Shown here in pieces: positions 1 through 50,500 of a stretch of DNA of 64,000 bases; position 1 is the stretch's first letter; every line of letters begins with the position of its first letter. The notes under the pieces were generated by a model that made no database searches, had not been told where the DNA came from, and saw only the letters and a program-made list of their open reading frames with translations. Source of the stretch: Geosiphon pyriformis uo1 (Eukaryota > Fungi > Glomeromycota); assembly GCA_016748015.1 (NCBI GenBank), contig JAAOMT010000591.1:667050-731049 (forward strand), given 5' to 3'. The translations under genes and the position numbers were made by a program.

Positions 1-187
1 GAAAACTGAACAAAGTGCCAAACAGTCTCGATGGAATGACTTCTTAGCAGACTACAGATATATTGTACACCACAAACCAGGAAAACTACATACCAATGTT
101 GATAGCCTCTCAAGAATGAGACAAGATTAATACCAACAACAATTCCACCACAACTTACCAACTTACTAACAAAATAACCAAACAAGA

Positions 188-3377: not shown

Positions 3378-6300
3378 GCACCTATGAATTTACAGTCATG
3401 CTTTTTGGTCTTATCAATATTTTTCCCATCTTTCAATGCCTAATGGACAAAATGTTTGAATTAGTAAAAAAAAACTTTGTTTTGGTCTATTTAGATGACA
3501 TAATAGTATACTCAAAAACTTGGAATAAATATTAGAACATTTACAAAAGATTTTTGATCTCCTTAGAAATGCTGGTCTCAAAATCAATCTAATCAAATCT
3601 TTTTTTGGACAACAATCTACTCAGTTCTTTGGTTATCTTATCACAAAAAATGGAATTTTTTCTAACTCAGCTAAATTTAAAAAAGTTCAGAACATTAGAC
3701 AACCAATAAATGTTTCTAAATTATACTCTTTTCTTGGTTTGACTTCTTACAATTGCAAATTTATTAAAGATTTCTCCAAATTTATCTTTCTTTTCAATCA
3801 GCTACTCAGAAAAAATGTTAATTATTATTAGGGCACTTATCAACAAAAAGCTTTTGAAACTCTGAAAAAAAAACTTGTTACTGAACCAATCCTTAAACAA
3901 TCTGATTTGGACCAATCTTTTATTCTGCACACTAATATATCTGGTTATGGACTTGGTGCTGTCCTCTTATAAAAAAATAAAAATAATAAAAAACATGCTA
4001 TAGCATATGCCAGTAGAACTTTCACACCAGCAAAAAAAAACTATTCAGTTACTGAACAAGAATGCTTAGTAGTAGTTTAAACTACTAGTTATTGGAATCA
4101 ATATTTTTTTAGTGTGAAATTCCTAATAGTAACAGATTATTAAGCCTTGGTTTGACTGTATGATAAAAAAAAGCTAGAACACAAATGAATAATTTGCTGA
4201 ATACTTCATTTAGATAAATTCGACTATGACATTTAACATCACAAAGAAGCAAATTATCAAAACACTGACACTTTCTCTAGATTTACTATACAGTAATAGT
4301 ACAATTTTTCAACCAAATCAACTTAATTATTAGTAACTCTCTTATAAACAAACATAATAATAAACTTAGACAACTACTCTGTATTAATAAAATTCTTGGG
4401 TAAAAAACAATATCCATTAGAATACACTTAACAGCAAAGAGAACATTTGCACAAACAATCAAATTTCTATTTGATTTGCCAGAACCAGTTATATAAAAAA
4501 AACAGAAAAGATCTTGACTGCTTTTAAAGAGTTATTAGATTTGAAAAAAAAGAAATTGTAATCTACTATATGTATACTGATCTATTAGCTTAACACTTTA
4601 AAAAAACATAAACAATACAAAAAATCTTAGCTTGCTATTATTGGCTTATCTTAAAAAAAGACATTGTTGAGTACATCAAAACCTGTAACATTTGTCAAAG
4701 AAAAGGCAAATCCAATCAAAAAAAAGATATTTATTCAATCTTTGTTGGTTAACTATTTGACAGAATTAGCATAGATGTTGTTAGATTTCTAATAATAACT
4801 TCTGATAATAATAGATATATTATTATAGCTACTGATTATCTTACAAAGTAAGTAGAAACAAGAGCCATTTTAGACAAAACAACAGTCTCAATAGCCAATT
4901 TCATTTATGAAAATATTATTTGTTGTCATGACTGTTCCAAAAAACTTTTATCTAACAAAAAAAAGCTTTTCTCAGTACACTGGTTAAAAAACTTTGTAGA
5001 AAAATGGAAATATTGTTACAATTGAAACTTATACTTCTTATTAATTATCACATGTATTAGCCACTGATGTTATATAAATTAGCCACTCTATTTTTAGTAA
5101 GTGATTATTGACCTGATCAATGACCTAACCATTAACCTGATCATTAATCTGATTATTGACCTGATCATTAATCTAGTCGTTGACCTGATCATTGACCACT
5201 TTGATAGCTATATAAGTGATAAATTTTTTAATTGTAGAAAAGTATAAAGAAATCAAAGAAATAAAGAAATAAAATAACAACTTCATCTCAATCCTTTTCT
5301 TATTGCTAATTTCTCTTTTCCTACTTTCAAGTATCTGAATATCTTAAAGATAAAAGATTACTTGTTGGTTATTCCTTACCCTTTTCCTAAAACATGTAAT
5401 TGCAATATTTGGAGATTATTAAATAAAACATGACTGAAGAGCACATCTGATACTTGATATTAAATTCTAAGAGCACTGACATGAGGCATAGAATTATACC
5501 AATTGTGATCATTTGTTGACAGTACGAACTATTCCTCTATCTTCAGATTTCCCGGTTATCTTTAAAAAGTATAGCAACTGAAATATTTTATGAGACTGAT
5601 CTTGCACATTGAATTTTTACTCATTCAATTCACTCTTTGAAGTTGAATTCACCTTTGATTATTTCTATCACCCTACAATTCTGTTCTTTCTTGCTATCCA
5701 TTGTTACTCATAAAAAAAAAAAAAAACAGATATAGAAAATAGCAGACCAATAAGAGAATAGTATTTAGCATGTGAACACATCACTCAGCAATGTAGAGCA
5801 ATGTCAGAAATCATGGCATATTGCTCAGCAATGTGGAGTGATGTTAGAAAATTAGAGCACATTGCTCAAGAAATTATAGCACATTACTTGGAAATGTGAG
5901 TGATCTTGTAGAACATCTATTATGTATATATAGTAATAGCATTAGAAATAGAAAAAAAACAGAATTCTTTAGTTAGAAATCTTCTATTCACAAATATTGA
6001 ATAAATAAATCATCTACTATTCAAATCTACTCTCCACTATCAACACTTTATGTTGATAATAATTGATACTTAACTATGCTGGAACAATAGCTCTTGATCA
6101 TGGCTATTGATGAGATACTAATTTGTGTATTACCTTGGCTTATTTCTTTATTTTCTTTTATTTTCTTTCTTTTTTTGATTTTTCTTGTTGAATACTAACT
6201 AATTAAGAATTAAAGCACTGAGTAATTGACATTACGGATAGTCTGGTAAAAGTCCTAGAAATAAGGGTAAAATTATATATATATTAACGAATAGCTTATC

Positions 6301-12500: not shown

Positions 12501-12832
12501 CAGTACTATCACAGAAAAAATCAGATGGAAGAGAACATTCAGTAGCTAACACTAGTAGAAGCTTAAGTTCAGCTGAGAAGAACTATGGAACTCCAGCACT
12601 AAAACACTTAGCTATCTATTGGGCTGTCATCAAATAGAAGAAATACTTGAGTCAAAAGTTTGAAGTGTATACTGATCACAAAAAATTGACTTCAATCCAA
12701 AAACAAAAATTTGCAGACAATTACCATGCCAGATAGAAAATAGAACTTTCACCATTTAATTATACAGTACATTATAAAAAGGGAAAAGACAATGGAAATG
12801 CTGATGAATTATCATGAATAAGACAAATCTAA
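6560..12832 (+). pseudogene. gag-pol of element E (retrotransposon gag, Zn knuckle, aspartic protease, Cys-rich domain, dUTPase, RT, RNase H); start approximate
   Basis: Motifs WLNNVEKAI..NGW, CHYCGKQ, LILNSGSAG (DSG), AGFDL/RSS/IAQ/RGIQGF, SPWSSPVVLV, YLDN, TDASD. The gag and PR fragments at 7174, 8248, 8752 and 9082 share one frame. Confidence 0.88.
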
Positions 12833-12863
12833 AAACATTTCAACCCAAAAAATATAATAAAAG

Positions 12864-14241
12864 ATAGACACACAAAAATACAAACAACTCCAGCATTATA
12901 TAAATACTCAATTGTTCAAGAAAAAATTATCTCAAAAAGAACAAAACAACATAAAACAACAATCAAAATATTTTATTAATCATTAAAATATACTCTACCA
13001 GAAGAACAGAAGAAATCCAGATCAACCAATCAGAGTAGTCACAGAATCAGAAAAAGAGACAATATTATTCAACATGCACTCAAATCCAACAGCAGGACAT
13101 TTTCATAAAGAAGCGACCATAAAAAGAACCAGAAAAAGATATTATTGGCCATCAATGTATCCAGACATCATCCAATATGTTCAAAATTGTGATGCTTGTT
13201 AAAAAAAAAGAGGAACAAGACCAAGTGAACCATTAAAACCAATCAAAGTAGAACAACCATTTGATTACATTGGAATTGACTTAGTCAGACCATTAACAAT
13301 CACCAGTAAAGACAACAGATATATTGCAGTAGCCATGGATTATCTCACTAAATGGCCAAAAGCAAAAGCCATTCAAAGAGCAGATGCAGAATCTGTTGCT
13401 GAATTTGTCTATCAAGAGTTAATATGTTAACATGGATGTCCAAAAAAACTACTATTAGATCAAAAAACTCATTTTGTGAATAGAACATTAATAGAATTAA
13501 GTCAGAGATTTGGGATAAAAAGATTATTATCGTCATCATATTATTTACAAACAAATGAACTAGTCAAAAGATTTAACAGAACACTGTGTGAAACAATTGC
13601 CAAAATCAGTCAAAAAAACCAAGATGAATGGAATTTGTTTATACCATCAGTATTATTTGCTTATCAGACAATAAGACAAGATACTACACAAACAACACCA
13701 TTTGAATTGGTATATGATAGGACAGCAACATTATCAGTTGAGAGAAAGGTCAGCATATATCCAATGGAACCAATAACAGAAGCTAATTTCCAAGAAACAT
13801 TGTTAAGAAGAACATATAACTTAATGGAAACACTAGAAAACAAATGACAAAAAAGCAGCTGATAACATTTAAAAGTCTTGAGAAAAGTAAAAAAAACGGC
13901 ACAATAACCAATTACCAGATAAACCAGTTGAATTCAAGATTGGAGACAAAGTACTTCTACATTGTACCAAAGTGGAAAAACAATGGAGTAGAAAATTTGA
14001 TCCCAAATGGGACGGACCATTTCACATAGAAGAAATTCTTGGAAATGGAGCTTATAAACTAATATAAGACAACAAAATCTTAGCCAAAGCAGCACATGAT
14101 GATTAACTGAAACCATATTACCAAATAGCATTATCATCTACCAATAACATTCCACAATTAGGAGTACAACGAATACTAGTTCAACCAAATGAGATTCTAT
14201 AAGATCTGGAACCAATCATAATTATTGGGCCAAACACATAA
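12864..14241 (+). pseudogene. Stand-alone integrase ORF of element E
   Basis: Starts ATA GAC ACA (degenerate MDT) 31 nt after the pol stop. Motifs AGHF, YYWP, GIDLV, DYLTKW, KWDGPF. Ends EPIIIIGPNT*. Confidence 0.85.
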
Positions 14242-17474: not shown

Positions 17475-20155
17475 ACACACCTCCAAAGGATGAAAGTGCA
17501 AGCTAACCAGAAAAAAACCCCTTTTATGCTTTTAACCTAACTGATAATAATCATGATATGGATGAACTAGCAATCAACACCTCTAAATCAACCAAAAAGA
17601 AGAAAAAAGCCAAGATTGATTTTGTCTTAAACTCAAACAAAGCATCCAAATTATCTGCTAATAACAATGAGTCACCAAAGGTTAAGGTTTTTAAAAATCC
17701 TCCAAAGTTAGAACCCCCAGAAATTGTACAAAAATTTGGATCCTATTCCATTGTTAAAGATCTCATGGAAACTCCAGCACACATTATATTTGGCCAGTTA
17801 ATGACTCACCCACAGTTTAAAAAAGATCTTTGCAAATCATTAATACCAAAGAAAAAGACACCAAAGACAAACAAACACCTTTACCAAGCTGAACTTGCTG
17901 ATGACAGCAATGTCATCCCTCTGATTTGTAAAGCCCAAGTGGCTGGTTACTTTATTGATCTGATCCTAAACAGTGGATCATTTGTTAGCATAATTGCCAA
18001 ACATTTTCTTGAAGCAATTGGCAGAAAAATTGATGAGCCTTCTATAAGACCAATAACTAATGTACATGGTAACAAGAAGAAAGGCCTGGGCATAGCCAAA
18101 GCTATTCCTGTTCGCATCAATGGTATCAGCATTGAAACAGATATGGAAGTATCTGAAGCAAAAGAGTACACCATTATTGTTGGTAATGAATGGCTTCAGA
18201 AAGCCAAAGCACTACTTAACTATAAACTTTGTGAGCTAACCATCAGATGTGGTAAGAAACCCATTGTGGTTAAATGCCGATATTGGACAACTCCTCCAGT
18301 ACCCAAGCAGAACCAAAAAGTAGAACAATCAGATGAATCAGATAATAATAAGAGCGATGATAAAAAAGATCAAGAAGAACCAGAAGAAACTGCTAAACTC
18401 GCTTATACCATTTTTACCAGCAATGACAAGCCACTAGACAATGTTAAAGCTAACAAAAAAGGAATCATGATAAATGGCAAGCTGATTTGTTGGCCCTACT
18501 ATGATATCCTCAGAAGAATCTTTGACAGAAAACCTGGCAAGAAAGCAAAATATAGTTATTGGTAATATGGTCTTTGTGCACAGTGCTAGTATAATAAATC
18601 TTTGTATTCACCAAGTGATGAATGCAAATCCTGTCTAATCTATTACAAAGATTGGGAACCAATTAGCTTGATACCTCGAGAAGAACTTAAAGAAGTACAA
18701 AAGTCCTTTGAGAATAAACCACTTGAAATCCAATTACTAGTTGTAGAACAAAAAGAACCTTCCCCTGAAGAAAAAAAAGTGGACATTGAAAATCTGTTGG
18801 CTAGGAATAGCCCAGTTATCTCAAAAGAAGATAATGCCCCTGGATGAACTCATGTGATACAATACACCATCACCACCAAAAAAACTCACCCCATTTATTT
18901 GAAGCCTTATCAATTCAATTGACACAATGATGAGTTTATCAAGAAAGAGATAAACCAGATGAAAGATCTTGGATTCATACAAGAAACCAAGAGTAAATAG
19001 GCTTTTTCAGTTGTAGTGGTATTCAAGAAAAGTGGAACCTTATGCTTCTGTATTGACTACTGCCAATTAAATACCATCACTATAAGAAACATGTACCCAC
19101 TCCCCAAAATTGATGCAATGCTAGATAAATTCAATGGTACTGCTTTCTTCTCAACTATTGATTTAACTGCTGAATTTTGACAAGTAGAGATGGATCCAGA
19201 AAGCAGAAAGAAAACTGTCTTTATCACCAAGTATAGCACCTATGAATTTACAGTCATGCCTTTTGGTCTTACCAATACTCCTCCTACCTTTTAATGTCTA
19301 ATAAATAAAGTGTTTGAATCAGTAAAAGAAAACTTTGTTCTGGTTTACTTGGATGACATAATGATATATTCAAAAATCTGGGATGAACATCTTGAACATT
19401 TACAGAAGGTTTTTGACCTGCTCAAAAATGCTGGCCTTAAGATCAACCCAATCAAATCTTTTTTTGCATGCCAATCTACCCAATTTCTTGGTCATTTTAT
19501 TACAAAAGATGGAATTTTTCCTGATCTAGCTAAAGTTGAAAAAGTTCAAAACATTAGACAACCAATGAATGTTCCTGAACTATGCTCTTTTCTTGGTTTG
19601 GCCTCTTACTATCGCAAATTTATTAAGAATTTCTCCAAAATTGCTTTTCCTTTCAATTAGCTACTCAAAAAAAATGTCAATTATCACTGGGACACTTATC
19701 AACAAAAAGCTTTTGAATTTTTGAAGGAAAAACTTGTTACTGAACCAATTCTCAAACAACCTGATCTGGACCAACCTTTTATCTTTCACACTGATGCATT
19801 TGGCTATAGACTTGGTGTTGTCCTTTTACAAAAAGATGAAAATAGCAGAAAACATGTCATAGTATATGCCAGTAGATCCTTCACACCAGCAGAAAAGAAC
19901 TATTCAGTTACTAAACAGGAATGTTTAGCAGTAGTTTGGACAACTAGTTACAGGAATCAATATCTTTTTGGTGTAAAATTCCTAGTAGTAACAGATTATT
20001 AAGCCTTGGTTTGGCTGCACAATAAAAAAAAGCTGGAACACAAACAAATAATTTGTTGGATACTCCACTTGGATGAATTTGACTATGATATTCAACACCA
20101 CAAAGGAGCAAATCATCAAAACACCAACACTCTATTTAGACTTACCATCCAGTGA
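17462..20155 (+). pseudogene. pol (PR-RT-RNase H) of element C, -1 frame relative to gag
   Basis: LILNSGS, VYLDD, FHTDA. TGA at 20153-20155 after ...RLTIQ. Confidence 0.87.
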
Positions 20156-20219
20156 CAGTACAACCTTTCAAACCAAACCAACTTAATTATTAGTAACTTT
20201 TTTATAAACAAACATGATA

Positions 20220-21533
20220 ATAGACTTGGACAACTACTTTGCCTTAATAGAATTTTTGGGTAAAGGACAATATCCACCTGAATACACTCAACAGCAAAGA
20301 AAACATTTGTGCAAACAATCAAATTTTTATTAGATTCACCAGAACCAATTATACAAAAAAAACAGAAAAAATCCTAACCACCCCCAAAGAGTCATCAGAT
20401 TTGAAAAAAGAGAAATTGTAATATACAACATGTACACTAACCTATTAGCTAGCCACTTTGGAAAAACAAAGACAATTTAGAAAACTTTAGCTCACTATTA
20501 TTGGCCTACCTTGGGAAAAGACATTGCTGAATACATCAAAATCTGTGACATCTGCCAAAGAAAAGGCAAACCCAATTGCAAAAAAAATATTCATCCAATC
20601 TCTGTTGGTCAACCATTTGACAAAATTGGTATAGATGTTATTGGACTTTTAACAATTACTCCTGATGGCAACAGATATATTATCACAGCTACCAACTATC
20701 TTATAAAGTGGGTAGAAGCAAGAGCCACCCCAGACCAAATAGCAGTTTCAATAGCCAATTTCATTTATGAAAATATCATCTGCCATCATGGCTGCCCCAA
20801 AAAACTTTTATCTGATAGAGAAAGAGCTTTTTTCAGTACACTGGTTAAAAAACTTTGTAGAAAAATGAGAATATGTTATAAACTTTTCTTCCCTTATCAC
20901 TCCCAAACAAATGGCCTAGTGGAATGTTTTAATAGAACATTATGTGAAACCCTAGCCAAAACCAATGAAGAAACAAACTTATGAGACAAAGTACTGCTTT
21001 TAGCTTTGTTTGCTTATAGAACTGTGAATTATAACATAACAAGTTATGAATCTTTTTATCTGCTCTATAGATGCATGACAATACTACTAATAGAAACTAA
21101 TATTAAAACAATACTCTTTGAAGAGATCACAATAGGGAATTACAAAGACATTTTGCAAAGAAGACTTGGTACTATTCTTGACTCCTTGGTAGAAGCACGA
21201 ATAATTGCTTTTGAAAAGATAAAACAGTTCCAAAAAAAGCTTAAGAAAAAAAAAACCTATAAAACACTTTCTTTAAGTGTTGTTTACTTGGTATTGGAAT
21301 ATTGTTCAGACAGAGACAATATCTATGATAATAAATTTTCTAGCTGATTAAAAGGACCCTTTATAGTCAACAAAGTTTTGAACAATAGTTTTTATATTCT
21401 TCAAAATCAATCTGAAACAATCTTCAATGATCATTTTGTTCATAGTACACAACTCAAGAAATACCATAAATGATCTGATTGGCTGCCTGTTGTGGTAATA
21501 CTGATTCAAATAATCAGCAAAAATCAAGTATAA
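20220..21533 (+). pseudogene. Stand-alone integrase ORF of element C
   Basis: ATA GAC TTG (degenerate MDL). CDICQ, GIDVIG, YHSQTNGLVE, KGPF. Confidence 0.85.
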
Positions 21534-22232: not shown

Positions 22233-25070
22233 TTATTACATGTATTAGCCACTGATGTCATATAAATTAGCCACTCTATTTTTAGTAAGTGATCATTGAC
22301 CACTTTTGATAATTATATAAGCAATGAATCTTTTAACTATAGAAAAGTATGAAAAAATTAAAGAAATAAAGAAATAAAATAACAACTTCATTTCAATCTT
22401 TCTCTTATTGCTAATTTTTTTTTCCCTACTTTCAAGTATCTGAACATCTTAAAGATAAAAGATTACTTGTTGGTTATTCTTTACTCTTTTCTTAAAACGT
22501 GTAATTGCAATATTTGGAGATCATTGAATAAAATGTGACTGAAGAGCATATCTGATACTTGATATTGAATTTTAAGAGCACTGACATAAGGCATAGAATT
22601 ATACCAAGTGTGATCATTTGTTGACAGTACAGACTATCCTTCTACCTTTAAATTCCCCAGTTATCTTTGAAAAGTATAGCAACTGAAATATTTTATAAGA
22701 CTGATTTTGCACATTGAATTCTTACTCATTTAATTTGTTCTTTGAAGTTGAATGTCCCTTTGATTATTTCCATCACCCTACAATTCTGTTCTTCCTTGTT
22801 ATCTATTAGCTTGTTATTCCAATCTGTAATAATATGTTATAAACTTTCTTCTTTTTACTATCCTTAAACAAATAGCTTAGTAGAATATTTCAATAGAATA
22901 CTATGTGAAATCTTAGCCAAAACCAGTAAAAAAACAAACTTATAGGACAAAATACTGTTTTCAGCTTTGTTTGCTTATAAACTGTAAATCATAACATAAC
23001 AAGTTATAAACTTTTTTATCTGCTCTATGAATACATGACAACATTACTAATAGAAACTAATATTAAATGAATACCCTTTGAAGAAATTACAATAGAAAAT
23101 TATAAAAACATTTTGCAAAGAAAACTTGGTACTATTTTTGACTCATTGGTAGAAGCACAAATAATTGTTTTAAAAAGATAAAACAGTTTTAAAAAAAGCT
23201 TAAGAAAAAAAAAACCTATAAAACATTTTTCTTAAGTGTTAGTAACTTAGTATTAGAATACCATTCAGACAAAGACAATGTCTATGATAATAAAATCTCT
23301 AGCTGATGGAAAAAACTCTTTTTAGTCAACAAAGTTTTGAACAATGGTTCTTATATTTTACAAGATCAATATAGAACAATCTTTAATAATTGTCTTGTTT
23401 ATGGTACATGATTCAAAAAATATTACAAATGACCTAATTGGTTATCTGTTGTAATAATACTGATCCAAATAATTAGCAAAAATCAGGTATAAATAAATGC
23501 ATCATTTCCAAAACAGAAGTATTTTTAATTAACATGAACAATTATTTTCTGAATCAAAACATTCAAAATGTTTTCTATACTCTTTATGAGTATTGAATCA
23601 AAAATTATCTAAATGCTACTCTGACTATTAGAAAACAAATCATTATAACTAATAACAATAAAATATATACTATTATTAGACCAAAGAAAACTACTATCAG
23701 AAAAGAAAAAATTGGTAGCAAAATGAATAAATATTTGCTGAAAAGTATAACAGTGGCAATACTTTTACCTTCCATTACAATTGAAAAAACAATTAAAAAA
23801 ATTTTATCTATAAACAAAACTTGTCATATGGAAGGCAATTAGAACTCTATGATTATCTTGGTAAAATTATAGAGAACATAAAGCTTATGAAGAAAACAAC
23901 TTTAAAGATATAGATAAAAATTTTGGGCATTATATAATTAAATGTCTTAAAAGTTTTAACTATTGCTAAAAGAGCCAAAACTCTTATACAAAAATTTAGT
24001 CTCTTGAATACAAAACTTATTTCATCTCAAATATTATATATCCTATTCACAAAAAACTTTAACAAACTAGTTAGTTTTAAGTTAAACAAAACCTTTCAAA
24101 TAGATTATCCTATAAATAGCTTGATTTCACCAGAGTTTAATTTCTTTGGAAAAAATAATGTTATAATTGAAACTTATACTTTTTATTAGTTATCACATGT
24201 ATTAGCCACTAATATCATATAATTAGCCATTTTATTTTTAGATAGTAATTATTGATTTGATCAATAATCTGACTATTGACTTGATTATTGACCTGATTAT
24301 TGACTATTTTCAATAGCTATATAAGTGATAAGTCTCTTAGCTATAGAAAAATATAATCAAAGTAATGAAATAAAATCCACTATTATTTTATTTTTTTTTA
24401 TATTATTTATTCTCTTTTTCTTATCTTTAAGTATCTAAATATCTTAAAATAAAAAATTACTTGTTGGCATTTACATACTTTATCTTTTTTTTTTCTTAAT
24501 TTGTATTGTTAGAATTAGTCTGAGAAGTAATTGCTTGCTCTTGTAATTTATTGAATAAAAAAATAATTAAAAAGCATAATAATACCTGTTATTAATTTTA
24601 AGAATTGCCAAGTTGAAGTATAAAATAATAGCAGTGATGTTATCTTGTTAACAATTATGGACTATTTCTCTATCTTTAAATTTCCAGAAAAAATTTACAA
24701 CTGTAATTTTTATAAGACTAATTATGCACATTGAATTTTTATTTATTTAATTCACTTTCTTATTGTAATTTTCTTTTTAATTATTTTCATTATTCTACAA
24801 TTCTGTTCTCTTTTGCTATCCATTAGCTTGTTACTTCAATCTGTAATAATATTATTTAAATAAATTAAAATAAGGTTTTTATTAACTAATTTAAATACTT
24901 TGTTTATTAATTATTAAAAGATAAAAAAAGCATTAATTAATCCAAAAAACATAATTGTAAATTTATAAGTATTATACTATTATAGTTGAAACCCATAGTT
25001 TTTATTAGTTATTACATGTATTAGCCACTGATGTCATATAATTAGCCACCCTATTTTTAGATAGTAATCA

Positions 25071-25190
25071 TTGACCTTATCAATGACCTGACCATTAACC
25101 TAATTATTGACCTGATCATTGACCTGATCAATGATCTGATTGTTGACCTGATCATTGACCTAATCATTGACTTGATTGTTGACCTAGTCA
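25071..25190 (+). repeat. Ten tandem 12-mers (consensus TTGACCTGATCA) in U3 of the Fam3 LTR, just upstream of a TATATAA box
   Basis: Counted directly. The same array, with different copy number, is present in most Fam3 LTRs. Confidence 0.9.
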
Positions 25191-25722
25191 TTAACCACTT
25201 TAGATAGATATATAAGTGATGATTTCTTTAGTTGTAGAAAGACATGATCAAAGTAACGAAATAAAACAATATTAATTACTTCCTCTTATATCGCTTATTT
25301 CTCCTTTCCTTATCTTCAAGTATCTACTTGTTGGCATTCACATATCTTATCTTTTCCTCTTCTTGATTTGTATTTATTAGAATTAGCCTGAGAAGCAATT
25401 GGCTTGCTCTTGTAATTCATTGAATAAAGAAATGATTGAAAAGCACAATGATACCTGTTATTGATTCTAAGAATCGCTGAGTTGAGGCATAGAATAATAG
25501 CAGCAGTGTTATTTTGTTGACAATCACGGACTATTCCTCTACCTTCAGATTTAAGAAAAGATTAGTGACTGTGATTTTTATGAAACTGATCATGCACATT
25601 GAATTCTTATTCATTCAATTCACTCCCTTATTGTAATTCCCTCTTTGTTTATTTCCATCACCATACAATACTGTTCTCTCTTGCTATCCGTTAGCTTGTT
25701 ACTCCAACTCGTAACATAAAAG

Positions 25723-25739
25723 TGGTGCTCCCTGTGAGG
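25723..25739 (+). promoter_or_regulatory. Primer-binding site TGGTGCTCCCTGTGAGG
   Basis: Begins with TGG (complement of tRNA CCA), 6 nt after the LTR end. Near-identical in Fam2 (6541). Confidence 0.85.
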
Positions 25740-25768: not shown

Positions 25769-27322
25769 ATGGGTAATTACTCATATCTGCCACAGCAATC
25801 AGAAGAACACTTTACAGCATACAACAGAAACGACCTAGATTTTATTGAACTTAATTCTCTGCCCTCCTGCTTGATCTGCTTCCCCCTTGAAGAACAATCC
25901 AGTAGACAATTCCAAGACTTTTGAAACTGGTTCCTGAATAAGCATTCAGCTGAAACCTACACAGCTTATACAACCTATTACTTTAACCAAGCTTATTTTG
26001 AAAATGACTTTGAAGAAAGAAACAACAGTATCAATCAGCTCTTATATTCTGCAACCTTTGAACAACAGCCCCCTGATTTCGAATATCTGAATCATCAAAT
26101 CCACATTTGGATTGCTGCCCATCAAGCAACCAAAACTCCCTTTGAAACAGAAGAAAAAAGCTACCAAACCACCCCTGTTTTTGACCTTTTATCAAGCAAA
26201 TCAGACTTGTCTACACAAACAGTTACCCCTGAACCAATGGCTAATGACCCCATGCAAGCAAACATTTTGGCCGTCCTCTAAGGTATACAAACTGCTCTAG
26301 GAAGAAGAAACAATATCCCACTACCACTATTTAGAAGTGATGTACAAGATTCAATTAAATGGTTGAATGATTTTGAGAGAGCTGCCACAGCCAACCAGTA
26401 TAATGAAAAATACAAGTTTTAAATTGTTGGTGGCTACCTCCAAGGCTCTCCTGCTATCTGGTTTTCACAAGAAACAGATGCCAATGCTCAACACAGAATA
26501 ATCAAATGGACACCAATTAATGCTGGAGAAGAAAATACCTCTTTCACTACCCGATTTGAGGCCAAGTTCAAAACCCCAATATTAATATCAAAATGGCACA
26601 TGGAATTGGAAAAAAAAATCCAAGGTCCTGGAGAAATAGTGACTGAATATGCCAAGGCTATTAGAAAGCCAATCAAACACATAGACTTTGGGAGAAATTG
26701 AACAGAAGAGCAGAAAATTCACTCCTTCACAAAAGGATTGAGAACTGATCTATCATATGCTCTTTGGCCCCTCCTGGCCCTGAAAAATAACCCCACCATG
26801 GATATGACTATTGAATTAGCACAAAGAATTGAAGATAACCAAAGGATGCACTTGGGATCCACACTACCAGTTTTTGCTCCTGCTCCTGTCATGGCTTCTG
26901 TCTCTCAAATGACTGCTACTTCTTTTGCCACTCACACTCAAGATTCAAATAAACAGTTAATAGACAGACTCACAGCAAATCTAGCCCAGTTATTAGAACT
27001 TTTAGCCCAAGCAGTCAGAGAAAATCAACAACCACAAAGACCTAGATTTGAACCACGCTTTAATCAATCCCAGCAATCACCTTATCAAAGACAACAAAAT
27101 CGTGGCCCACCTGTATGCTATCACTGTGGATTAACTGGACACTTTTCAAGAGATTGCAACAATTTTCCACTGCCTCCACCAGTTCCCAAAAACAATGATG
27201 CCCAGAACAACAGATCCAACAACAACAATATTCCCAACCAAAGACCCAATCATGCCAATATCAATTTCTTTGGAGAGGATCCCCTAGTTGAAGCCACTGT
27301 TTATCAGCCTTTAAACTGGTAG
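25769..27322 (+). pseudogene. gag of element F with CCHC knuckle CYHCGLTGHFSRDC
   Basis: Single frame with scattered transition-derived stops. Includes ORF 26738-27322. Confidence 0.88.
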
Positions 27323-27358
27323 GCACACCTCCAAAGGGTAAGAATGCAAGCCAACCAG
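27310..27358 (+). promoter_or_regulatory. Putative -1 ribosomal frameshift signal: T TTA AAC plus downstream stem-loop
   Basis: Heptamer is in X XXY YYZ phase one codon before the gag stop, and pol is in the -1 frame. Conserved in C, G and H. Confidence 0.8.
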
Positions 27359-29981
27359 AAGAAAACCCCTTTTACACTTTTAACTTAATTGATGATGACC
27401 ATGACATGGATGAACTAGCAATCAACCCCTCTGAATCCACAAGAAAGAAGAAGAAAGCCAAAGTTGATTTCGTTCTGGACCCCAATAAAGCTTCTATATC
27501 AACTGCTGACAACAATGAGCCCCCAAAAGCCAAAGTTTTCAAAAACCCTTTAAAGTTGGAACCCCCAGAAATAGTACAAAAATCCGGCCCCTATTCTGTT
27601 GTCAAAGATCTCATGGAAACCCCAGCACATATAATCTTTGGCCAATTGATAACCCATCCACAATTCAGAAAAGATCTTCGCAAATCTCTGATTCCAAAAA
27701 AAAAGACATCCAAAACCAACAAATGCCCTCACCAAGCTGAACTTGCTGACAATAGCAATGTCACTCCTCTAATTTGCAAAGCTCAAGTGGCTGGCTACTT
27801 CATCAATTTGATTCTAGACAGTGGATCATCTGTTAGTGTTATTGCTAAACACTTTCTTAAAGCAATTGGCAGAAAAATTGATGAACCATCCACACGACCA
27901 ATGACCAATGTGCATGGTGATAAGAAGAAAGGGCTTGGCATAGCCAAAGCTATTCCTGTCCACATCAATGGCATCAGCATTGAAACTGATATGGAAGTAT
28001 CTGAAGTGAAAAAATACACCATCATTGTTGACAATGAATGGCTCAAGAAAGCAAAAGCTTTGCTTGATTATAAACTCTGTAAACTAATCATCAGATGTGG
28101 TGAAAAACCCATTGTGGTTAAGTGTCACTATTGGACAACTCCTCTAGTACCCAAGCAGAGCCCAGAAGAAAATGAATCAGACAAATCAGATGATAAAAAA
28201 AGTGAGAAAGAAGAAGAACAAGAAGAAACTGCTGAACTCACCTATACCATCTTCACCAGCAATGGCAAACCACTGGATAATGTCAAGGCAGATAAAGAAG
28301 GAATCATTATTAATAGCAAGCTGATCTGCTGGTCTTATTATAACATGCTCAGAAGAATCTTTAACAGAAAGCCAAATACAGTTATTGGTGGCATGGTCCT
28401 TGTGCCTGGTGCTGGTGCAACAAACTATTGTATTCTCCAAGCAATGAATGCATGTTCTGCCTGATCTATTACAAAGATTGGGAACCAATCAGTTTGATAT
28501 CCCGAGAGGAAATAAAAAAAGTCCAAAAGTCCTTTAAAAACGAACCACCTGAAATCTAATCACTGGTTGTAGAACAAAAAAAACCCTCTCCAGAAGAAAG
28601 AAAGATAGACATTGAAAACCTGCTGGCTAGAAACAGCCCAGTTATCTTAAAAGAAGGTGAACCTTCTGGACATACACATGTGATACAACACACCATCATC
28701 ACCAGAGAAACTCGCCCCATCCATTTGAAGCCTTATCAATCCAACCGGCACAATGATAAGTTTATCAAAAAGGAAATAACCCGAATGAAAAACCTTGGAT
28801 TCATACAGGAAACCAAGAGTGAATGGGCATTCCTGGTTGTAGTGGTATCCAAAAAAGAAGGAACCTTATGCTTTTGTGTTGACTATTGCCAATTAAATAT
28901 CATCACTGAAAGAGACATGTACCCACTTCCCAAGATTGATGCAATGCTAGACCAATTCTATGGTGCCACTTTCTTCTCAACCATTGATTTAACTGCTGGA
29001 TTCTAGCAAGTAGAAATGGATTCAGAAAGCAGAAAGAAAACTGCCTTCATTACCAAGTATGGCACCTATGAATTCACAGTCATGCCTTTTGGTCTTACAA
29101 ATGCTCTTCCTACCTTTCAACGCTTAATGGACAAAGTATTTGAATCAGTAAAAGAAAACTTTGTTCTAGTCTACTTGGATGACATAATAGTATACTCAAA
29201 AACCTGGGATGAACACCTTGAACATTTGCAAAAGGTTTTTGATCTCCTTAGAAATGCTGGTCTCAAAATCAATCCAATCAAATTATTCTTTGGACATCAA
29301 TTCACCCAGTTTCTTGGCCATCTTATTACAAAAGATGGAATCTTCCCTGATTTAGCCAAAATTGAAAAAGTTCAAAACATTAGACAACCAATAAATGTTC
29401 ATGAACTACACTCTTTTCTTGGTTTGGCCTCTTATTATCGCAAGTTTGTCAAGGATTTCTCCAAAATCACCGCTCCTCTCAATCAGCTACTTAAGAAAAA
29501 CATCAATTATCACTGAGGCACTCATCAACAAAAAGCATTTGAAATTCTGAAGGAAAAACTGGTTACAGAACCCATTCTCATGCAACCTAATCTGGATTGA
29601 CCTTTTATCTTCCATACTAATACAACTGGCTATGGACTTGGTGCTGTTCTTTCCCAGAAAGATAAAGATGGCAGGGAACATGCCATAGCATATGTCAGTA
29701 GAACTCTCACACCAGCAAAAAGGAACTACTCAGTCACTGAGCAAGAATGCTTAGCAGTAGTTTGGGCTACCAGCTACTGGGACAAATATTTTAAGGGTGT
29801 AAAATTTTTGGTGGTAACAGATCACCAAGCTTTGGTTTGGCTATGCAACAAAAGAAACCTGGAACATAAATGGATAACTTGCTGAATATTCCACTTGGAT
29901 GAATTTGACTATGACATTCAACACTGCAAAAGAGCTAATCATCAAAATGCCGATGCTCTTTCCAGACTTACCATCCAGTGA
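27310..29981 (+). pseudogene. pol (PR-RT-RNase H) of element F
   Basis: [42 protein letters not shown]. Confidence 0.92.
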
Positions 29982-30047
29982 TAGTAAAACCCTTTCAAAC
30001 CAAACCAACTTAATTATTTGTAACTTACCCCACAAACAAACACAATA

Positions 30048-31361
30048 ATGGACTTGGACAACTACTCTGCCTTAATGAAATTTTTGGGTAAAGGACAATA
30101 TCCGCCGGACTATACTCGACAGCAAAGAGAACATTTGCGCAAACAATCAAATTTCTATTTGATTCACCAGAACCAGTTATATAAAAGAAATAGAAAAGAT
30201 CTTGACTGCCTCCAGAGAGTCATCAGATTTGAAGAAAAAGAAATTGTGATCTACAATATGCACACTGATCCATTAGCTAGACACTTTAGAAAAACAAAAA
30301 TGATCCAGAAAACTTTAGCTCACTATTATTGGCTTACCTTGGGAAAAGACATTGCTGAATACATCAAAACCTGTGATACCTGCCAAAGAAGAAGAAAATC
30401 CAATCACAAGGAAGATATCCATCCAATCTCTGTTGGTCAACCATTTGACAGAATTGGTATAGATGTTGTTAGACTTTTAACAGTAACTTCTGATGGCAAC
30501 AGATACATTATTACAGCTACCAACTATCTTACAAAGTGAGTAAAAGCAAGAGCCACTCCAGACCAAATAGCAGCCTCAATAGCCAATTTCATTTATGAAG
30601 ATATTATTTGTCGTCATGGCTGCCTCAAAGAACTTTTATCTGACAGAAGAAGAGCTTTTCTTAATACACTGGTTGAAGAACTTTGCAGAAAAATGGGAAT
30701 ACGTCATAAACTCTCTTCCCCTTATCACCCTCAAACAAATGGCCTAGTAAAACATTTCAATAGAACACTATGTGAAACCCTAGCCAAAACCAATGAAGAA
30801 ACCAATCTATAGGACAAAGTATTGCCTTCAGCTTTGTTTGCCTACAGAACTGTGAATCATGACATAACAAGTTATGAACCCTTTTATTTGCTCTATAGAC
30901 AAATGGCAACTCTACCAATAGAAACAGATATAGAAACAATACCTTTTGAAGAAATAACAATAAGAGATTACAAAGACATTTTGCAAAGAAGACTTGGTAC
31001 TATTCTTGACTCATTGGTAGAAGCACAAATAATTGCCTTTGAAAAGATAAAACAGTTCCAAAAGAAGCTCAAAAAGAAAAAGACCTATAAAACACTTTCC
31101 TTAAGTGTTGGTGACTTAGTTTTGGAATACCATTCAGACAGAGACAATGTTTATGGTGATAAATTCTCCAGCTGCTGGAAAGGACCTTTTATAGTCAACA
31201 AAGTTTTGAACAATGGTTCATATATCCTACAAGATCAATATGGAACAATATTCAGTGATCGCCCAGTTCATGGCACGTGACTCAAGAAATATCACAAACA
31301 ACCTAATTGGTTACCTATTGTGGTAATACCAACCCAAATGATCAGCAAAAATCAGATATAA
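30048..31361 (+). pseudogene. Stand-alone integrase ORF of element F (437 codons, one frame)
   Basis: ATG GAC start. ORFs 30048-30539 and 30822-31280 are in frame. HHCC, DDE region, WKGPF. Confidence 0.9.
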
Positions 31362-31402: not shown

Positions 31403-32059
31403 ATGAACAATTATTTTTTAGATCAAAACATTCAAAATGCTTTCTACACTCTCCATGAGTACTGGATCAAAAATTATCCAAATGCTACCCTGACTATTGG
31501 AAAACAAACCACCATAATAGACAACAATGGAACTTATACTGTTATCAGACCAAAGAAAACAACTACCAGAAGGAAAAAAATTGGTAGCAAAATGGATAAA
31601 TACCTGCTGGAAAGCATAACAGCAGTGATACTTTTACCTTCCAGCACAATTGGAAAAATAATACAAGAAATCTTGCCCATAGACAAAAACTTGTCATATG
31701 AAAGACAACTAGAACTCTATGGTCATCTTGGTGAAATCATAGAAGACATGAAGCTCATGAAGAAAACAACTTCAGAGATACAAGTGGAAATTTTGGGCAT
31801 TATATGATTAGATGTCCCAAGAGTTTTGACCATTGCTAAAAGAGCCAGAACTCTTATACAAAGATTTGGTCTCTTGAATACAAAACTTATTTCACCTCAA
31901 GTATTATATACCTTATCTACAAAAGACTTCAACAAACTAGTTAGTTTTGAGTTAGACAAAACCCTTCACATAGACTATCCCATAAATAGCTTGATTTCGC
32001 CAGAGCTCAATCTCTTTGAAAAGGATGATGTTACGGTTAAAACCCATAGTTTTTATTAG
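31403..32059 (+). pseudogene. ORF3 of element F (218 codons, one internal TGA), ends in the 3' LTR
   Basis: ORFs 31307-31807 and 31826-32059 are in the same frame. Homologues in B, C, G and J. Confidence 0.8.
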
Positions 32060-33496
32060 TTATCACATGTATTAGCCACTGATGTCATATAATTAGCCAC
32101 CCTATTTTTAGATAGTGATTGTTGACCTGATCAATGACCTGACTGTTGACTTGATCATTGATCACTTTAGATAAATATATAAGCAATGATTCTTTTAGCT
32201 GTAGAAAGACATAATCAAAGTAACGAAATAAAACAATATCAATTACTTCCTCTCATATCGCTTATTTCCCCTTTCTTTATCTTCAAGTATCTACTTGTTG
32301 GTATTCACATACTTTATCTTTTCCTCTTCTTGATTTGTATTTATTAGAATTAGCCTGAGAAGCAATTGGCTTGCTCTTGTAATTCATTGAATAAAGAAAC
32401 GATTGAAAAGCACAATGATACCTGTTATTGATTCTAAGAATTGCTGAGTTGAGGCATAGAATAATAGCAGCAGTGTTATCTTGTTGACAATCACGGACTA
32501 TTCCTCTACCTTCAAATTTAAGAAAAGATTAGCGACTGTGATTTTTATGAGACTGATCACGCACATTGAATTCTTACTCATTCAATTCACTCCCTTATTG
32601 TAATTCCCTCTTTGTTTATTTCCATCACCATACAATACTGTTCTCCCTTGCTATTCATTAGCTTGTTACTCCAACCCGTAACAATACTTTATAATAAATA
32701 CAGTTTTCTTAAATCCATCTTTACTTGTTAAAATTTAACAGTTAAGTTAATGATTAAAAAAAAAGCAGCATTATGAAATTTATTTAATATTGCATCAATT
32801 TTAGAAAGTAAATATATGTTTCTTTTAATGATAATATTTAATTGGTAATAGTTAATACAGAAACATAAGATTCTATCTTTTTTGAAAATTACTACTACTA
32901 AAACATTTATTCATTCTTGGTTTTTTGTATGAACCCAAGTTTTTTTATTCAATCTATTTTTTTTTGATAAATTTATATTAAATATGCATCTTATTATTTG
33001 CAATTAAAATAAACTTCACTTTGTTAAAACATAATAATAAAAAATTTAAAAAATTGCTTTATTAATTTAAAAACTCTTATAATTTATAGCAATATCACAT
33101 TTCAAAAATCTAAATTGTAAAATAATGGCTTTCTATCGATTTCCCATAGCTGAAATTTACAAATGGAAGATCCTAGAGAAAATATTAAATCGTGAAATTA
33201 CAATTCAGAAGACATTGAGCGAAAAAAGAATTACAGATTATCATAAGGAATAATGAACACACATTGATAAATCTAAGGTAGATGTAATTTTATATAATTA
33301 ATTAATCCAAAATGACGAAATCCGGCTATTTTGTACTCGTATCCGGAACCGTTTTGATGATTGGATCTAAAATAAAGAAGCTTGACTTCACGTTAAATGA
33401 CGACGGATAAGCTTGTAAAGAATCGGGAGAAATGGAAAATATTCTGCGAATAAACTTTAATGGATTAAAGGGAAAAGAAAAGAATGCACAACTCAG

Positions 33497-34098: not shown

Positions 34099-35053
34099 TC
34101 ATCCACTCTCGATCATTCTCAATAAAACAGTCACAAGTTTCATAAATTCAGTATATTGTTGTTCGGAGAATTCATCGTCACTGAACCTCGCGCGCTCATA
34201 GCCCTCAATATATAGATGGCCAATTCGACGGTCAATCATATTGTGTTCAATAAGGAAATCAATGTAGCGTTGAATTGAAATCGAGTGTTGGCGTCGTAGT
34301 AGTGAAGAACGTTGAATAGCAGCTTGTTCTATTATATCTGGTGTTTGAGATATAGAAGTCTTGAAGTGAATATCAGCCAAAGAAGAATCTGTAGTAAAAT
34401 TTCAGAAAGGGAATTAGCTGATTTTGATTCATTGCATCTTTCCAAGGCATTAATAGATATCATTCTGCTCAAAAATACCAGGTCGTCCCCAACCAGGTTG
34501 TCCGCCATCTTCGACCCGAGGTTCAGCTTCAAATGCGATCTTTGATACTCGAGTTAGTTCAGAAGTTATAAAGCTATGGACTGACTATAAATAAAAGGTG
34601 ATTTTACTCAAATAGGCGTTTATTGTGACATACTACTAGTGTAGGGTTAAGAAAAATGAAAGTTTTAGATCCATACCTTTGGGAGGTCCTTAGCATTTAT
34701 AGGAAGAGAGGATTTTGGAATCGTAGAATTGGCTTTTTTCAAGTAATTGATGCGATAAAATCCAATAATAATCGCGAAAAAAGCCTAAACGAGTAGTTAT
34801 TTTGGTCGTAATTGGTGACAGTTTACTTAGTCAATGACTTTTGATGGTGATAATTAAGTATTATACTTGAGAGTTCGCTTACTATTGAGATGTATATACC
34901 AATTACGAATCCCAAATAAGGCCATGGGCATGTTTTAAAACTGGTTTGCCTTATAATGTCGAAGGCAGCGACAAACAGCGCAGCTAAGGTCAGTATTCCA
35001 AGGAAAAAGAGTGAACTTGTGTACAATCTGTTACCCAGTTCATTTTCTTCCAT
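34099..35053 (-). CDS. DLT1: DLT1-like (defect at low temperature 1) two-TM membrane protein, 224 aa; exons 35053-34883, 34784-34677, 34584-34479, 34388-34099
   Basis: GT-AG introns give a continuous 675-nt frame. Two N-terminal TM helices, IPKSSLPI...DLPK, PGWGRP and YERARFS...EFMKL motifs fit the fungal Dlt1 family as I recall it. Confidence 0.78.
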
Positions 35054-46135: not shown

Positions 46136-47521
46136 TTAAGTGTTCAAGTTTGGTTGTTGTTCTATTATAATTATTGGTTCTAAATTTTGGGGAATATCTT
46201 CAGGATTAATTAAAGGGAAATGTGTACTAATTTGTAAAATTAATGATTCAGGATTGTTTCTGGAATGATAGTGTTTCAATCTGTCTCCATGTGCAACTTT
46301 TGCTAATATTTTGTCATCAAGTCTCAACTTGTATGATCCATTGCCTAGAATTTTGTGAATATAAAATGGTCCATCTCATTTGTTTTCAAATTTCCCACTC
46401 CATTGTTTTTCAGCCTTAGTTCTGTGTAAGAGAACTTTATTTCCAACTTTAAATTTGTTGATAATAGGTGGTAATTTGTTGTCATGTCTTTTTTTTTGTT
46501 GAACTTGGGAATGTTCAATATGAGTTGCTACTATTTTTCTTTTTCCTTTCAGTGTACTAAGAAGAGTGTAGGCTCTTCTTTGGAGTGTTTCTTGAAAGTT
46601 TTCTTCATTGATTGGTTGCACTGGGTATGTTTCCACTGTAAAATTAATTGGTAATGTTGCTGTCCTTCCATAAGTAAGATCAAATGGTGTGTGTTTCATA
46701 GTATCTTGTTTTAGCGTTCTGTATGCTAGTAACACTAATGAAATAAAGATATCCCATTTCTACTCAAAGTCTGTTAAGACTTTGGCTAGAAATTCACACA
46801 ATGTTTTGTTGAAATGTTCTACAAGTCCATTTGTTTGAGGATGATAAGGTGATGATAGAGATCTTTTGACATTGAACCATTCACAAATTTCTTGTATTAA
46901 GTTGTTCACAAAATGTGTTTCTTGATCAGATAAAAGTTCAATTGGGCATCTATGTCTACAAATAATGTCTTCATAAATGAAATTTGCTACCAATTTTGCA
47001 TCTGCTCTTTGGATGGCTCTAGCTTTAACCCATTTGGTAAGATAATCTACTGCTACTGCAATATAGCAATTTCTTTGGGTTGTGATAGGTAATGGTCTGA
47101 CTAAATCAATTCCAACTCTGTCAAAAGGTTGTCCAACTTTGATTGGATTTAAAAGTTCTATGGGGTGAGTTTCTTCTCTTTTTTGGCAACTATCACAAGA
47201 TTCTACATATTGTCGAATGTTTTTTTGCATGTGAGGCCAAAAATAATGTTCAAGAGTTCTTTGAATGGTTCCATTTCTTCCCAAGTGTGCTGAAGACAGA
47301 TCTGTGTACATGTTGTATAAAATTGTTTCTTTTTCATTCTTTTGTACTAATCTGAGTAGTTGGTTTGGGTTTCTGTGATTTTTATAATAGATTTTGTTCT
47401 GGTGTATAAAATATTGTTTTGATTGGTGTTGTAAATGATGTTTTTCACTTGGAGACCAGTTTTCTGGCATGGTAAGGGTCTCCAAATAATTTTTAAGATT
47501 GCTGTAATTTCTGGGATCCAT
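46136..47521 (-). pseudogene. Stand-alone integrase ORF of element D (MDPRNYSNL...)
   Basis: ATG start. HHCC, GIDLV, SPYHPQTNGLVE, GPF. Ends EPIIIIEQQPNLNT*. Confidence 0.9.
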
Positions 47522-47566
47522 TTTTGTTTGGTAAGTTGGTAAGTTGTGGTGGAATTGTTGTTGGTA

Positions 47567-50500
47567 TTAATTTTGTCTCATTCTTGAGAGGCTATCAACA
47601 TTGGTATGTAGTTTTCTTGGTTTGTGGTGTACAATATATCTGTAGTCTGCTAGGAAGTTATTCCATCAAGACTGTTTGGCACTTTGTTCAGTTTTCTTTT
47701 TATTGAGCTATTTGAGGCCAATGTTGTCTATTATTATGTCAAATTCTTTTCCATTCTTCAGATATTGTTGAAAATGTTTAAGAGCCCAAATGACTGTGGC
47801 AGCTTCTAATTCAGTTGAGCCATATTTTAGTTTTGTTGGTTTGAGTGTTCTACTAGCATAAGCAATAACTTGTTCTTGCCTATTTTCATCTACTTGTGAT
47901 AAAATGGCACCAAATGCTATGTGTGAAGCATCAGTGGCTAATTGGAACTGTTTGTTGAAGTCTGAGTAAGCAAGAACTGGGGCTGTTGTCAATTTTGTTT
48001 TGAGAGTTTTAAAAGCTTTTTGTTGTTCTTCAGTCCATTTGTATGGCACGTTTTTGTTGGTAAGATAATTAAGTAGTTTGGCAATTTCTGAGAATTTTTT
48101 TATGAATTTTTGATAGTAAGAGGCTAATCCTACAAATCCTTTTAGTTCTGTGGTATTTCTGGAAGTTTGAAAGTTTTTGACAGCACTGATTGTTCCTGGA
48201 TTTGGTTTAACTCCATCTTTACTAACTATGTGTTCAAGAAAAATCAAGCTTGTTTTTCCAAAGTGACATTTCTCAATGTTTAACTTTAATTCTGCTTTCT
48301 GTAATCGTTAAAAAACTTCTTGCAGGTGAATGAGATGAATCTCAAAGCTTGGTGAGTATACATTAGTGTTATCAAGATAGACAACTACTGATTGTTACAA
48401 GAGTCCTTCATATACAACATTCATGAGTCGCTGGAATATTGTTGGTGCATTGCAGAGTTCAAAAGGCATAACATTAAACTCATAGTTTCCTTCCTGGGTG
48501 GTAAATGCTGATTTGGGTCGGTCTTTTGGGTCTATTTTGACTTGTTAGTATCCACTTTCCAAGTTTAAAGTTGAAAAGAACTTGGCTTTTCCTAGAGCAT
48601 TTAGCATGTTATCAATTCTTGGAAGAGGGTAAGCATTTCCAATTGTAACACTATTCAGTTGTCTATAATCAACACAGAATCTGATTTTTCCGTTTTTCTT
48701 TTTAACTAAAACTACTGGTGAGGCCCAAGGACTTTTTGATGGTTGAATCAATCTGTTATTGAGCATTTTTTGGATCTCTTCTCTGATGAATTGGTGGCTG
48801 GCAGGTGATACTTAATAAGCTTATTGTCATTTTAGTGGAGCATCTCCTGTATGGATCTGATGTTGAACAATATCCGTTTTTCCCAAGTTATTGTTGTCTT
48901 TTGCAAATATATCTGCAAATTCAGCTATCAATTGTTTTAATTGTTTTTGTTGTTGAGGTTCTAAGAGACCTATGTTGATTTGAGAAAGTTTTTTTTTCCA
49001 AAAAGTGGTAGTTTTCAGTAGTGGAAATGATATTTGGATTTGGGAGTAGAGTGTGCCTTATAATTTTGATGAAATTAGAGACAATTTGAGGGTTTTCATC
49101 TTGAAAAATATTGCTGTGTATGATTTCAATTTCTAGTTTGTTTAATAAAACAATAGGGTAATTATTGGAGTTGTAGAATATAACTCGAAATTTTTTTATT
49201 CTTTTGGGAATATAAACATTTGGAATTGAGATTTCATGCTTCAAACAGATTTGTTCATTGAATTCAAAGATTTGTTGTGTAGTGGTGGGTTTTAAACAAG
49301 TGTAAATTTCGTGATGTTCTCCAAAAGGTGAAATGGTAATTGGCTGGAAAAGTTGAAGAATCTGGTGAGATTTATTTTGTGTATTAAGAGTTATGTTTAC
49401 TGGAACTGTAAATTGTCCAGTTGAACCAAAACCTTGAGTTCCTCTTTCACTTTTTCCCAATTGTTCTCTGTTGTTTACTGATTGTAAACCCGAAATGTTG
49501 ATTAAGAGTAAGTAAATTGCTTGAACAATTTTTTCAGCATGTTCAATTTTGAATGGTTTGTTTGTCTCATTCTGTAACATGATGGTAATGTCTCCAGTAT
49601 ATCCTGCATCTATAACTCCTCTTCTAATATTGATTCCTTTGCTTGCCAATGATGATCTGGAGGCAATTTGAACCATTGCTCCTGGTGGAATTTCAAGAGC
49701 AATTTTGAGATTGATTTTTGTTAAGGACTTTGGTTGAAAAACCAAAGTATCTTTTCCTGGGTATCTTAGGTCATATCCAGCATCAATTTCGTGTGCTTTT
49801 TTTGGTCTAATTCCTTGGCCATGGTTGTCAAAATATTTAAGTTGTAGAGGTAGTTGCTTTTCAAGAAGATAGATGGGGGTGGTTGGTAATTCTTCTACTA
49901 GTTCAGATACTCCAAATTCGATTTTATTTTTATCATTCTCATCTGGCAAAGGAATGCTAAGAGCATAACATTCTAAACACCATTGGTCATCACAAGGCAT
50001 AACACATTCTTTACACAATTGAATGTTTATTTGCTCTAATTGTTGAATTTGAGCTTCTTTGGTCAGATATGTATGGCTTGCAATTTGGTGGTAGGTTTCT
50101 ACTTCATCTTCATAATTAAATCCAGCTAATTTTATGGTATACTTAATATATTCAGCTTCTTTCATTTGGCGAACATCTTCTTGGGTGGCTCCATTGATCA
50201 ATGCCATTGCTAGGTCAAAAATCATTTCAGCATCATGAGAATAGTAGTAAAGTTTATTGAGAGCACTGTTATATGCTGCATCAAATGGTGTTCCTCTTCT
50301 GACTTTTTCTGAAATTGATAAAGCATATTGACAGGTTTGATCACATACTTCTCTTTTCATTGCTACATCAATCCATTGTATTTTTCTGGTTGCATTTTTC
50401 CACATATAAGGCAAGGTGTATTGTCCCATTTTCCACTTCTTTTTGGAAATCCAAATCATTCTCTATGGCATGCTTTGCAAAAGTAACAGGTATGAGTTTT

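Follow-up and report, generated by a model that had tools for sequence, protein, structure and literature searches.

A separate integrase reading frame in Ty3/Gypsy-like LTR retrotransposons of Geosiphon pyriformis and their relatives

The end of pol in the window

The stretch of Geosiphon pyriformis uo1 DNA analysed here (GenBank assembly GCA_016748015.1, contig JAAOMT010000591.1, positions 667,050 to 731,049 of the forward strand; 64 kb, below called the window) is crowded with decayed long terminal repeat (LTR) retrotransposons of three families, Fam1, Fam2 and Fam3. In these elements the pol gene ends after RNase H (RH), and the integrase (IN) is a separate open reading frame (ORF) with its own ATG, an architecture that is almost certainly real. 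In copy C, a Fam3 element, the fixed pol stop codon TGA (29979..29981, +) is followed by an A/C-rich spacer of 66 nt (29982..30047, +), which contains no ATG and is predicted to be unstructured (minimum free energy (MFE) 0.0). The integrase frame of 437 codons (30048..31361, +) carries three decay stops and comprises a YPYY-type N-terminus, an H2C2 zinc finger, a DDE core and a GPY/F region.

The original prediction named seven such junctions, and the stop was found at all of them, with the spacer lengths claimed. Fam1 has one on the plus strand at 128..190 (TAA 128-130, 57-nt spacer) and one, in a dUTPase-bearing family, on the minus strand at 47519..47569 (TAA 47569-47567, 45-nt spacer without any G, intact ATG at 47521). 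The Fam2 junction lies at 12830..12866 (+; TAA 12830-12832, 31 nt), and the Fam3 junctions other than that of copy C lie at 4294..4362 (+; TAA 4294-4296, 63 nt), 20153..20222 (+; TGA 20153-20155, 64 nt) and 56277..56347 (−; TAA 56347-56345, 65 nt). The integrase start is, as expected, an ATG or its decayed form: ATG is kept in two of the seven copies (30048 and 47521), and the other five have ATA. The LSR motif said to precede the stop has itself decayed in several copies (FSR, LFR, LNL, LS followed directly by a stop). The near absence of G from the spacers holds in the window (0-4 G per spacer in the seven) but not as a general trait, the median G content of the 45 nt before the integrase ATG being 0.16 in 33 loci versus 0.18 in integrase coding DNA.

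The stop could be suspected of being a C>T/G>A decay product of dead copies. The CpG observed/expected ratio of the window is 0.22, transitions make up 85% of the differences between two Fam3 copies compared, and premature stops occur in every window copy. However, between 29064 and 29984, where 15 codons are stops in one or more of the four Fam3 copies, only the codon at 29979 is a stop in all four. In the 756 contigs of run X1 aligned to 29935-30075, the sole stop-codon variant was TGA>TAA (depth 10647 of 60620); at a threshold of 4%, neither T>C at 29979 nor A>G at 29981 nor any variant of the ATG was seen in these contigs. By contrast, the control decay stop at 29514-29516 is restored to TGG at a depth of 62861 of 74190 (85%). 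Run X1 is possibly the window's own sample and shows fixation across copies, not in an independent genome. Within that scope, the expectation that stop and ATG are fixed across the family was borne out, with no sense variant of the stop. Neither CAA or CGA at the stop nor a constant in-frame spacer was found in X1 copies or in relatives; 1-nt indels occur among the copies at 30026-30027 and segregate in the Fam3 spacer in the X1 contigs. Because the stop is fixed in X1 and intact relatives with CpG near 1.0 have the same split, the decay explanation is refuted and keeps next to no probability.

Copy C is a complete element with LTRs, a target duplication, gag, pol, spacer, integrase and ORF3. 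Its 5′ LTR (24978..25716, +; TG decayed to TA, ending in CA) and 3′ LTR (32029..32683, +; a purine-rich tract before it) agree in 618 of 655 aligned bases, with 37 mismatches, all of them transitions, plus 84 gap columns. The 4-bp duplication ATAC flanks them at 24974-24977 and 32684-32687. A putative primer-binding-site-like stretch beginning with TGG (25723..25739, +) lies 6 nt past the LTR. The decayed part of gag that is recognisable (26237..27322, +) includes a CCHC zinc knuckle, and the gag/pol overlap holds a TTTAAAC slippery heptamer (27310..27316, +), where a −1 frameshift probably takes place; further TTTAAAC heptamers are present at 17462, 40843 and 59034 (−). The pol gene (27292..29981, +), with decay stops and frameshifts, encodes protease, reverse transcriptase (RT) and RNase H and ends in ADALSRLTIQ-stop. 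ORF3 (31403..32059, +) reaches into the 3′ LTR.

Fam1 and Fam2 encode a dUTPase between protease and RT (10318-11661, +; 48921-50462, −). Two apparently intact host genes, for the SPC22 signal peptidase subunit and a BCS1 AAA ATPase, lie at 34900-37900 with CpG near 0.8 amid the CpG-depleted elements. An insertion at 42724-44614 apparently interrupts a Fam1 LTR and has two ORFs (43169-44466, −) without a Pfam match.

Split layout in related elements

In all 18 related lineage loci whose contig includes the RNase H end, pol stops and the integrase begins at its own ATG. The spacers range from -11 to 727 nt in frames 0, 1 and 2 (4, 5 and 9 loci), and the pol stops are TAA (11), TAG (5) and TGA (2). 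The DNA survey took in 121 loci. The split is present in L048, in L055 and in every one of the 16 loci that reach at least 250 bits and show the end of RNase H; of the 24 more distant loci in which the terminal motif occurs, 22 continue for 40 codons without a stop. The polycistronic order gag-pol, integrase, ORF3 proposed for the window is present in intact relatives.

Protein collections gave a similar picture. In the best 120 integrase homologues (240-765 aa), 95 share the same Met start, followed by D, E or N, while 23 start later and two earlier. Gene callers do start proteins at ATG by construction, but the fixed position of the Met is not an artefact of this kind, because only 2 of 53 long control proteins have a Met at that place. 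Among the best 120 RT-RH relatives an integrase occurs in only five, all of them frog gene models. The terminal motif was recognised in 106 of the 120; 86 of these end within 29 residues of it (mode 3-4), some of them possibly at contig ends, and 16 continue for at least 50. The claim that pol ends exactly four codons past LSR therefore stands for the window and fails for the lineage as a whole.

Scores above 300 bits were reached by only three of the best 120 long relatives, all of them NCBI fungal gene models without the RNase H end or without all of RT-RH. When the length filter was removed, the integrase was N-terminal in all 15 single-stretch matches above 426 bits; multi-stretch matches were set aside, their scores being sums over concatenated elements. 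The long "fused" fungal proteins P0125-P0127 appear to be gene-model joins that skip the RNase H end, and P0126 is only 0.02 from a stand-alone integrase. In annotations of mycorrhizal fungi, such integrases are listed as stand-alone genes, or the stop is bridged by odd gene models.

The named carriers of lineage proteins are Rhizophagus, Cetraspora, Dentiscutata, Entrophospora and Paraglomus (Glomeromycotina), a stand-alone integrase in Lichtheimia adds one carrier from Mucorales, and the top Atlas clusters for the lineage are from Mucoromycota. The viral contigs searched yielded no lineage member. One lineage contig, L085 (NZ_JBNQGD010000400.1), lies in a bacterial genome bin, probably as contamination. 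In unconstrained quick trees the split elements do not all form one clade (window Fam3, L005 and L048 fall outside in the RT tree), and a single clade was not rejected by approximately unbiased (AU) tests (RT, p 0.92 with four long rows dropped; integrase, p 0.89). One clade of split elements is compatible with these tests, which do not in themselves demonstrate it. L033 grouped with plant-type rows, probably through an extraction error or as a chimera, and was excluded from later trees.

Some relatives have an enlarged pol. A long acidic Cys/His-rich extension past RNase H was seen in L018:3500-4438, L008:2-541, L033:3-329 and L040:189-464, measuring 150-590 aa in relatives, and had no Pfam match in those scanned; such a tail is present in L018 and, judged by sequence, in several other loci with the ~40-nt RNA motif described below. 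Some relatives have pol proteins for which a NUDIX domain (PF00293) is listed; P0267, P0272 and P0310 are the proteins noted in connection with the dUTPase and NUDIX domains. In L024 (509-1237), an extra ORF with an Mrr-type restriction endonuclease domain directly precedes the integrase, with ATGA overlaps on both sides.

A conserved ORF3 family of ~145 aa lies 3′ of the integrase in 13 loci (L007:2284-2715, L018:5890-6333, L010:1488-1919 and others), 11 of which were used for a profile. The window ORF3 shows a weak likeness to it (hhalign probability 24%, E 8e-4, 42 columns). The model, predicted with confidence, is an all-helical domain (predicted local distance difference test (pLDDT) score 91.5). 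No Pfam family was found for ORF3, and the fold search gave no clear match (best Z 5.1, root-mean-square deviation 3.2, 70 aligned residues; no Foldseek E below 0.1). In the Atlas it matches clusters of closterovirus coat and of phage translation repressor at 0.92-0.94, but the features in common number only 139-150, and these matches are a lead only.

Translation of the separate integrase

A stop between RNase H and integrase might still allow an RT-RH-IN polyprotein to be made by readthrough or frameshifting. The spacer is in frame in 4 of the 18 relatives and in both Fam1 copies, and the lineage apparently recodes at other sites: an in-frame TGA CTA in a readthrough-type context separates protease and RT in L011:870-875, L023:2926-2931 and L032:1585-1590, so that Gag-PR and RT are also stop-separated in part of the lineage, and a TTTAAAC heptamer occurs at gag/pol in L005 and L019, as in Fam3. 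However, these recognisable recoding sites are absent from the RH/IN junction, which makes recoding there unlikely. Furthermore, 14 of the 18 spacers are out of frame, as the argument from variable frames in the window had suggested, 1-nt indels segregate in the Fam3 spacer, and the conserved Met has a selected start context. The polyprotein explanation is largely refuted and retains very little probability.

The integrase ATG behaves as a real start. A purine occupies position −3 in 28 of 33 integrase starts versus a background of 56% (p 5e-4), and the 45 nt upstream contain 10 ATGs versus 21.9 in shuffles (p 0.001). Fused elements have an RH-IN linker with a hydrophobic end, and in alignment the ATG falls just past it, at a position that would correspond to the expected protease cut.

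From the mechanisms listed in the original prediction, the analysis favours reinitiation and leaves a subgenomic mRNA as the main rival. Termination followed by restart appears the likeliest mechanism, at somewhat better than even probability, because several arrangements have a start codon that overlaps the preceding stop or lies almost against it. The pol stop and the integrase ATG overlap or are at most 11 nt apart in four of the 18 pol/IN junctions (L013, L019, L032 and L048); where extra small ORFs precede the integrase (L024, L027 and L035), its ATG again overlaps their stop; and integrase and ORF3 of L010 overlap as ATGA. Ribosomes would terminate at the pol stop, and post-termination 40S subunits would restart at an overlapping AUG or, as in the window, scan a short, unstructured, AUG-poor spacer. 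None of the spacers tested was more structured than its shuffles, and the MFE of four window spacers was 0 to −0.2. The same coupling would serve ORF3. The integrase start codon would then take the place of the proteolytic step by which fused elements release their integrase, and the putative free integrase may enter the particle by binding RNA, Gag or RT.

Several observations weigh against restart. Pol itself seems to need a frameshift in Fam3, L005 and L019 and readthrough in L011, L023 and L032, so that restart after it would yield very little integrase. All seven window spacers (31-66 nt) exceed the limit of up to 29 nt quoted for viral coupling in the relevant parts of PMC5972666, the long spacers of L011, L023 and L027 hold 7-12 upstream ATGs, and an out-of-frame ATG lies between the integrase stop and ORF3 in Fam3. 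No shared restart signal was detected, TGGGA being present in only 4 of 33 upstream regions, and no consistent structure was found before the pol stop.

The good start context and AUG depletion would suit a capped subgenomic mRNA equally well. Such an RNA for the integrase (and ORF3), transcribed from a promoter inside RT/RNase H or spliced from the leader, is a possible but distinctly less probable source. It would free the integrase supply from rare frameshift or readthrough events and would tolerate the spacers of 365-727 nt. Nevertheless, the spacers of window Fam1 (47569), L012 and L028 contain no AG, a branch point plus YAG occurs in 14 of 33 upstream windows and in 82 of 274 control windows, which amounts to little enrichment, and the repeated stop/start overlaps would serve no purpose. 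A splice joining RH directly to integrase was ruled out by the spacers without AG and by the variable frames.

In one sub-lineage, ten loci carry a single copy of a conserved ~40-nt RNA motif, with covarying pairs, that ends about 2-40 nt before the integrase ATG: L008:583-627, L010:183-227, L018:4461-4505, L021:488-532, L025:6-50, L026:173-217, L033:443-487, L038:17-61, L040:490-534 and L085:159-203. The motif consists of an outer stem, TGAAA, a two-pair hairpin with a four-base loop and a five-pair stem with a CANNGTGA loop. Pairing is possible in 96% of the cells, and both-sided changes number 24 versus 6.9 in shuffles, a count biased in favour of the structure, which was drawn from the same sequences. 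No credible Rfam match was found for the motif loci or the long spacers, and the viral contigs contain no match to the motif. These features would suit internal ribosome entry aided by RNA structure, the motif acting as an entry or restart element or creating a new 5′ end by self-cleavage. However, a motif model run on 83 sources (E below 0.01) matched only the ten loci and, more weakly, L009:22-64; the window and the other loci lack it, and the window spacers are predicted to be unstructured. Internal entry seems improbable, though less so than a fused product.

Comparison with known systems

The integrase of Ty3/Gypsy elements is usually made within the Pol polyprotein, and LTR retrotransposons and retroviruses are thought to need this placement for the entry of integrase into the particle. 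A large and old fungal lineage breaks this rule and must translate and load its integrase by a route of its own. No account of an LTR retrotransposon whose integrase has an ORF to itself was found in the portion of the literature covered by our search; Repbase entries and supplements lay beyond the scope of that search and may already show the layout. Besides a case in which restart behind a long ORF can be tested, the lineage offers a new RNA motif and an orphan helical protein, ORF3.

In other respects the elements resemble Ty3/Gypsy (Metaviridae, e.g., Ty3). They share direct LTRs of the TG...CA type, a target duplication (copy C), primer-binding-site-like and polypurine-tract-like stretches, the order Gag-PR-RT-RH-IN, a dUTPase in some families and an integrase bearing an H2C2 finger, a DDE core and a GPY/F region; in the PDB, the profile of this integrase matches Ty3 best (E 6e-54). 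The difference is that the integrase lies outside Pol, and the elements are therefore classed as a variant with the working mode of Ty3/Gypsy rather than as a canonical member. The relevant part of a survey of fungal Ty3/Gypsy elements reports that most elements have either a single fused ORF or two ORFs and describes no separate integrase (PMC2864245).

Known cases of termination-reinitiation (LINE-1, SART1, the hypovirus CHV1, caliciviruses and influenza B) have a downstream ORF behind a long one, with an overlap (TAATG, ATGA) or a short spacer. TGGGA is the calicivirus-type motif of the TURBS (ribosome-binding site upstream of termination), and the elements differ from calicivirus-type cassettes in having no TURBS motif upstream of the integrase (TGGGA in 4/33). 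As for the close stop and start of such cassettes, at most 11 nt separate the two in four of the 18 pol/IN junctions and in three small-ORF/IN junctions, and 31-66 nt do so in the window. Precedents are provided by LINE-1, whose ORFs are separated by 63 nt according to the sections concerned of PMC5972666 (63-66 nt in Fam3), and by the UAAUG and AUGA overlaps of SART1 and viruses, as reported in parts of PMC5972666 and PMC10275272. The relevant part of PMC5902531 contrasts LTR retrotransposons with non-LTR elements and does not describe restart for the former.

A parallel for an integrase of this kind starting at its own Met is seen in Ginger1 DNA transposons. The YPYY motif before the zinc finger is shared with Ginger1 transposases and with integrases of Athila/Tat-related Gypsy elements, in which it is described in the relevant sections of PMC2836005; according to the same sections, no Gypsy lineage groups firmly with Ginger1, and the ancestor may be missing from the data. 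In Ginger1, YPYY, zinc finger, DDE and GPY/F also lie in a Met-initiated N-terminal part of ~400 aa, and the alignment of the Ginger1-like P0130 with the separate integrases begins at their Met with no offset. Unlike the fungal elements, which have direct LTRs and Gag and RT-RH upstream, Ginger1 has terminal inverted repeats, a single transposase ORF and no RT. Its C-terminal OTU/Ulp1 domain is absent here: the window integrases (437 and 461 aa) end past the GPY/F region, and no such domain is listed for the 120 integrase homologues.

In an 87-row tree, a 100/99 branch separates the split integrases, five Ginger1-like proteins and seven fused integrases from other Gypsy integrases, and Ginger1 is sister to a 93/88 group with no settled internal branching order. 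This tree used a simple model, its bootstrap had not fully settled, its rows were picked by similarity to the split group, and several of its "N-terminal" rows have no DNA context. The joining branch stays (100) after removal of the first 78 columns and 22 rows, and a clade of split elements plus Ginger1 was not rejected in the reduced tree (p-AU 0.75). The tree does not tell the direction of change. It is conceivable, though on balance doubtful, that the separate integrase is an ancient state shared with Ginger1 cut-and-paste transposons. The fungal elements would then be living intermediates between LTR elements and DNA transposons, a lineage missing from the 2010 Ginger study, polycistronic, with an integrase translated by restart (in one branch via an undescribed structured RNA) and packaged without a polyprotein. 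The lineage also offers a way into the relationship between Ginger1 DNA transposons and Gypsy elements.

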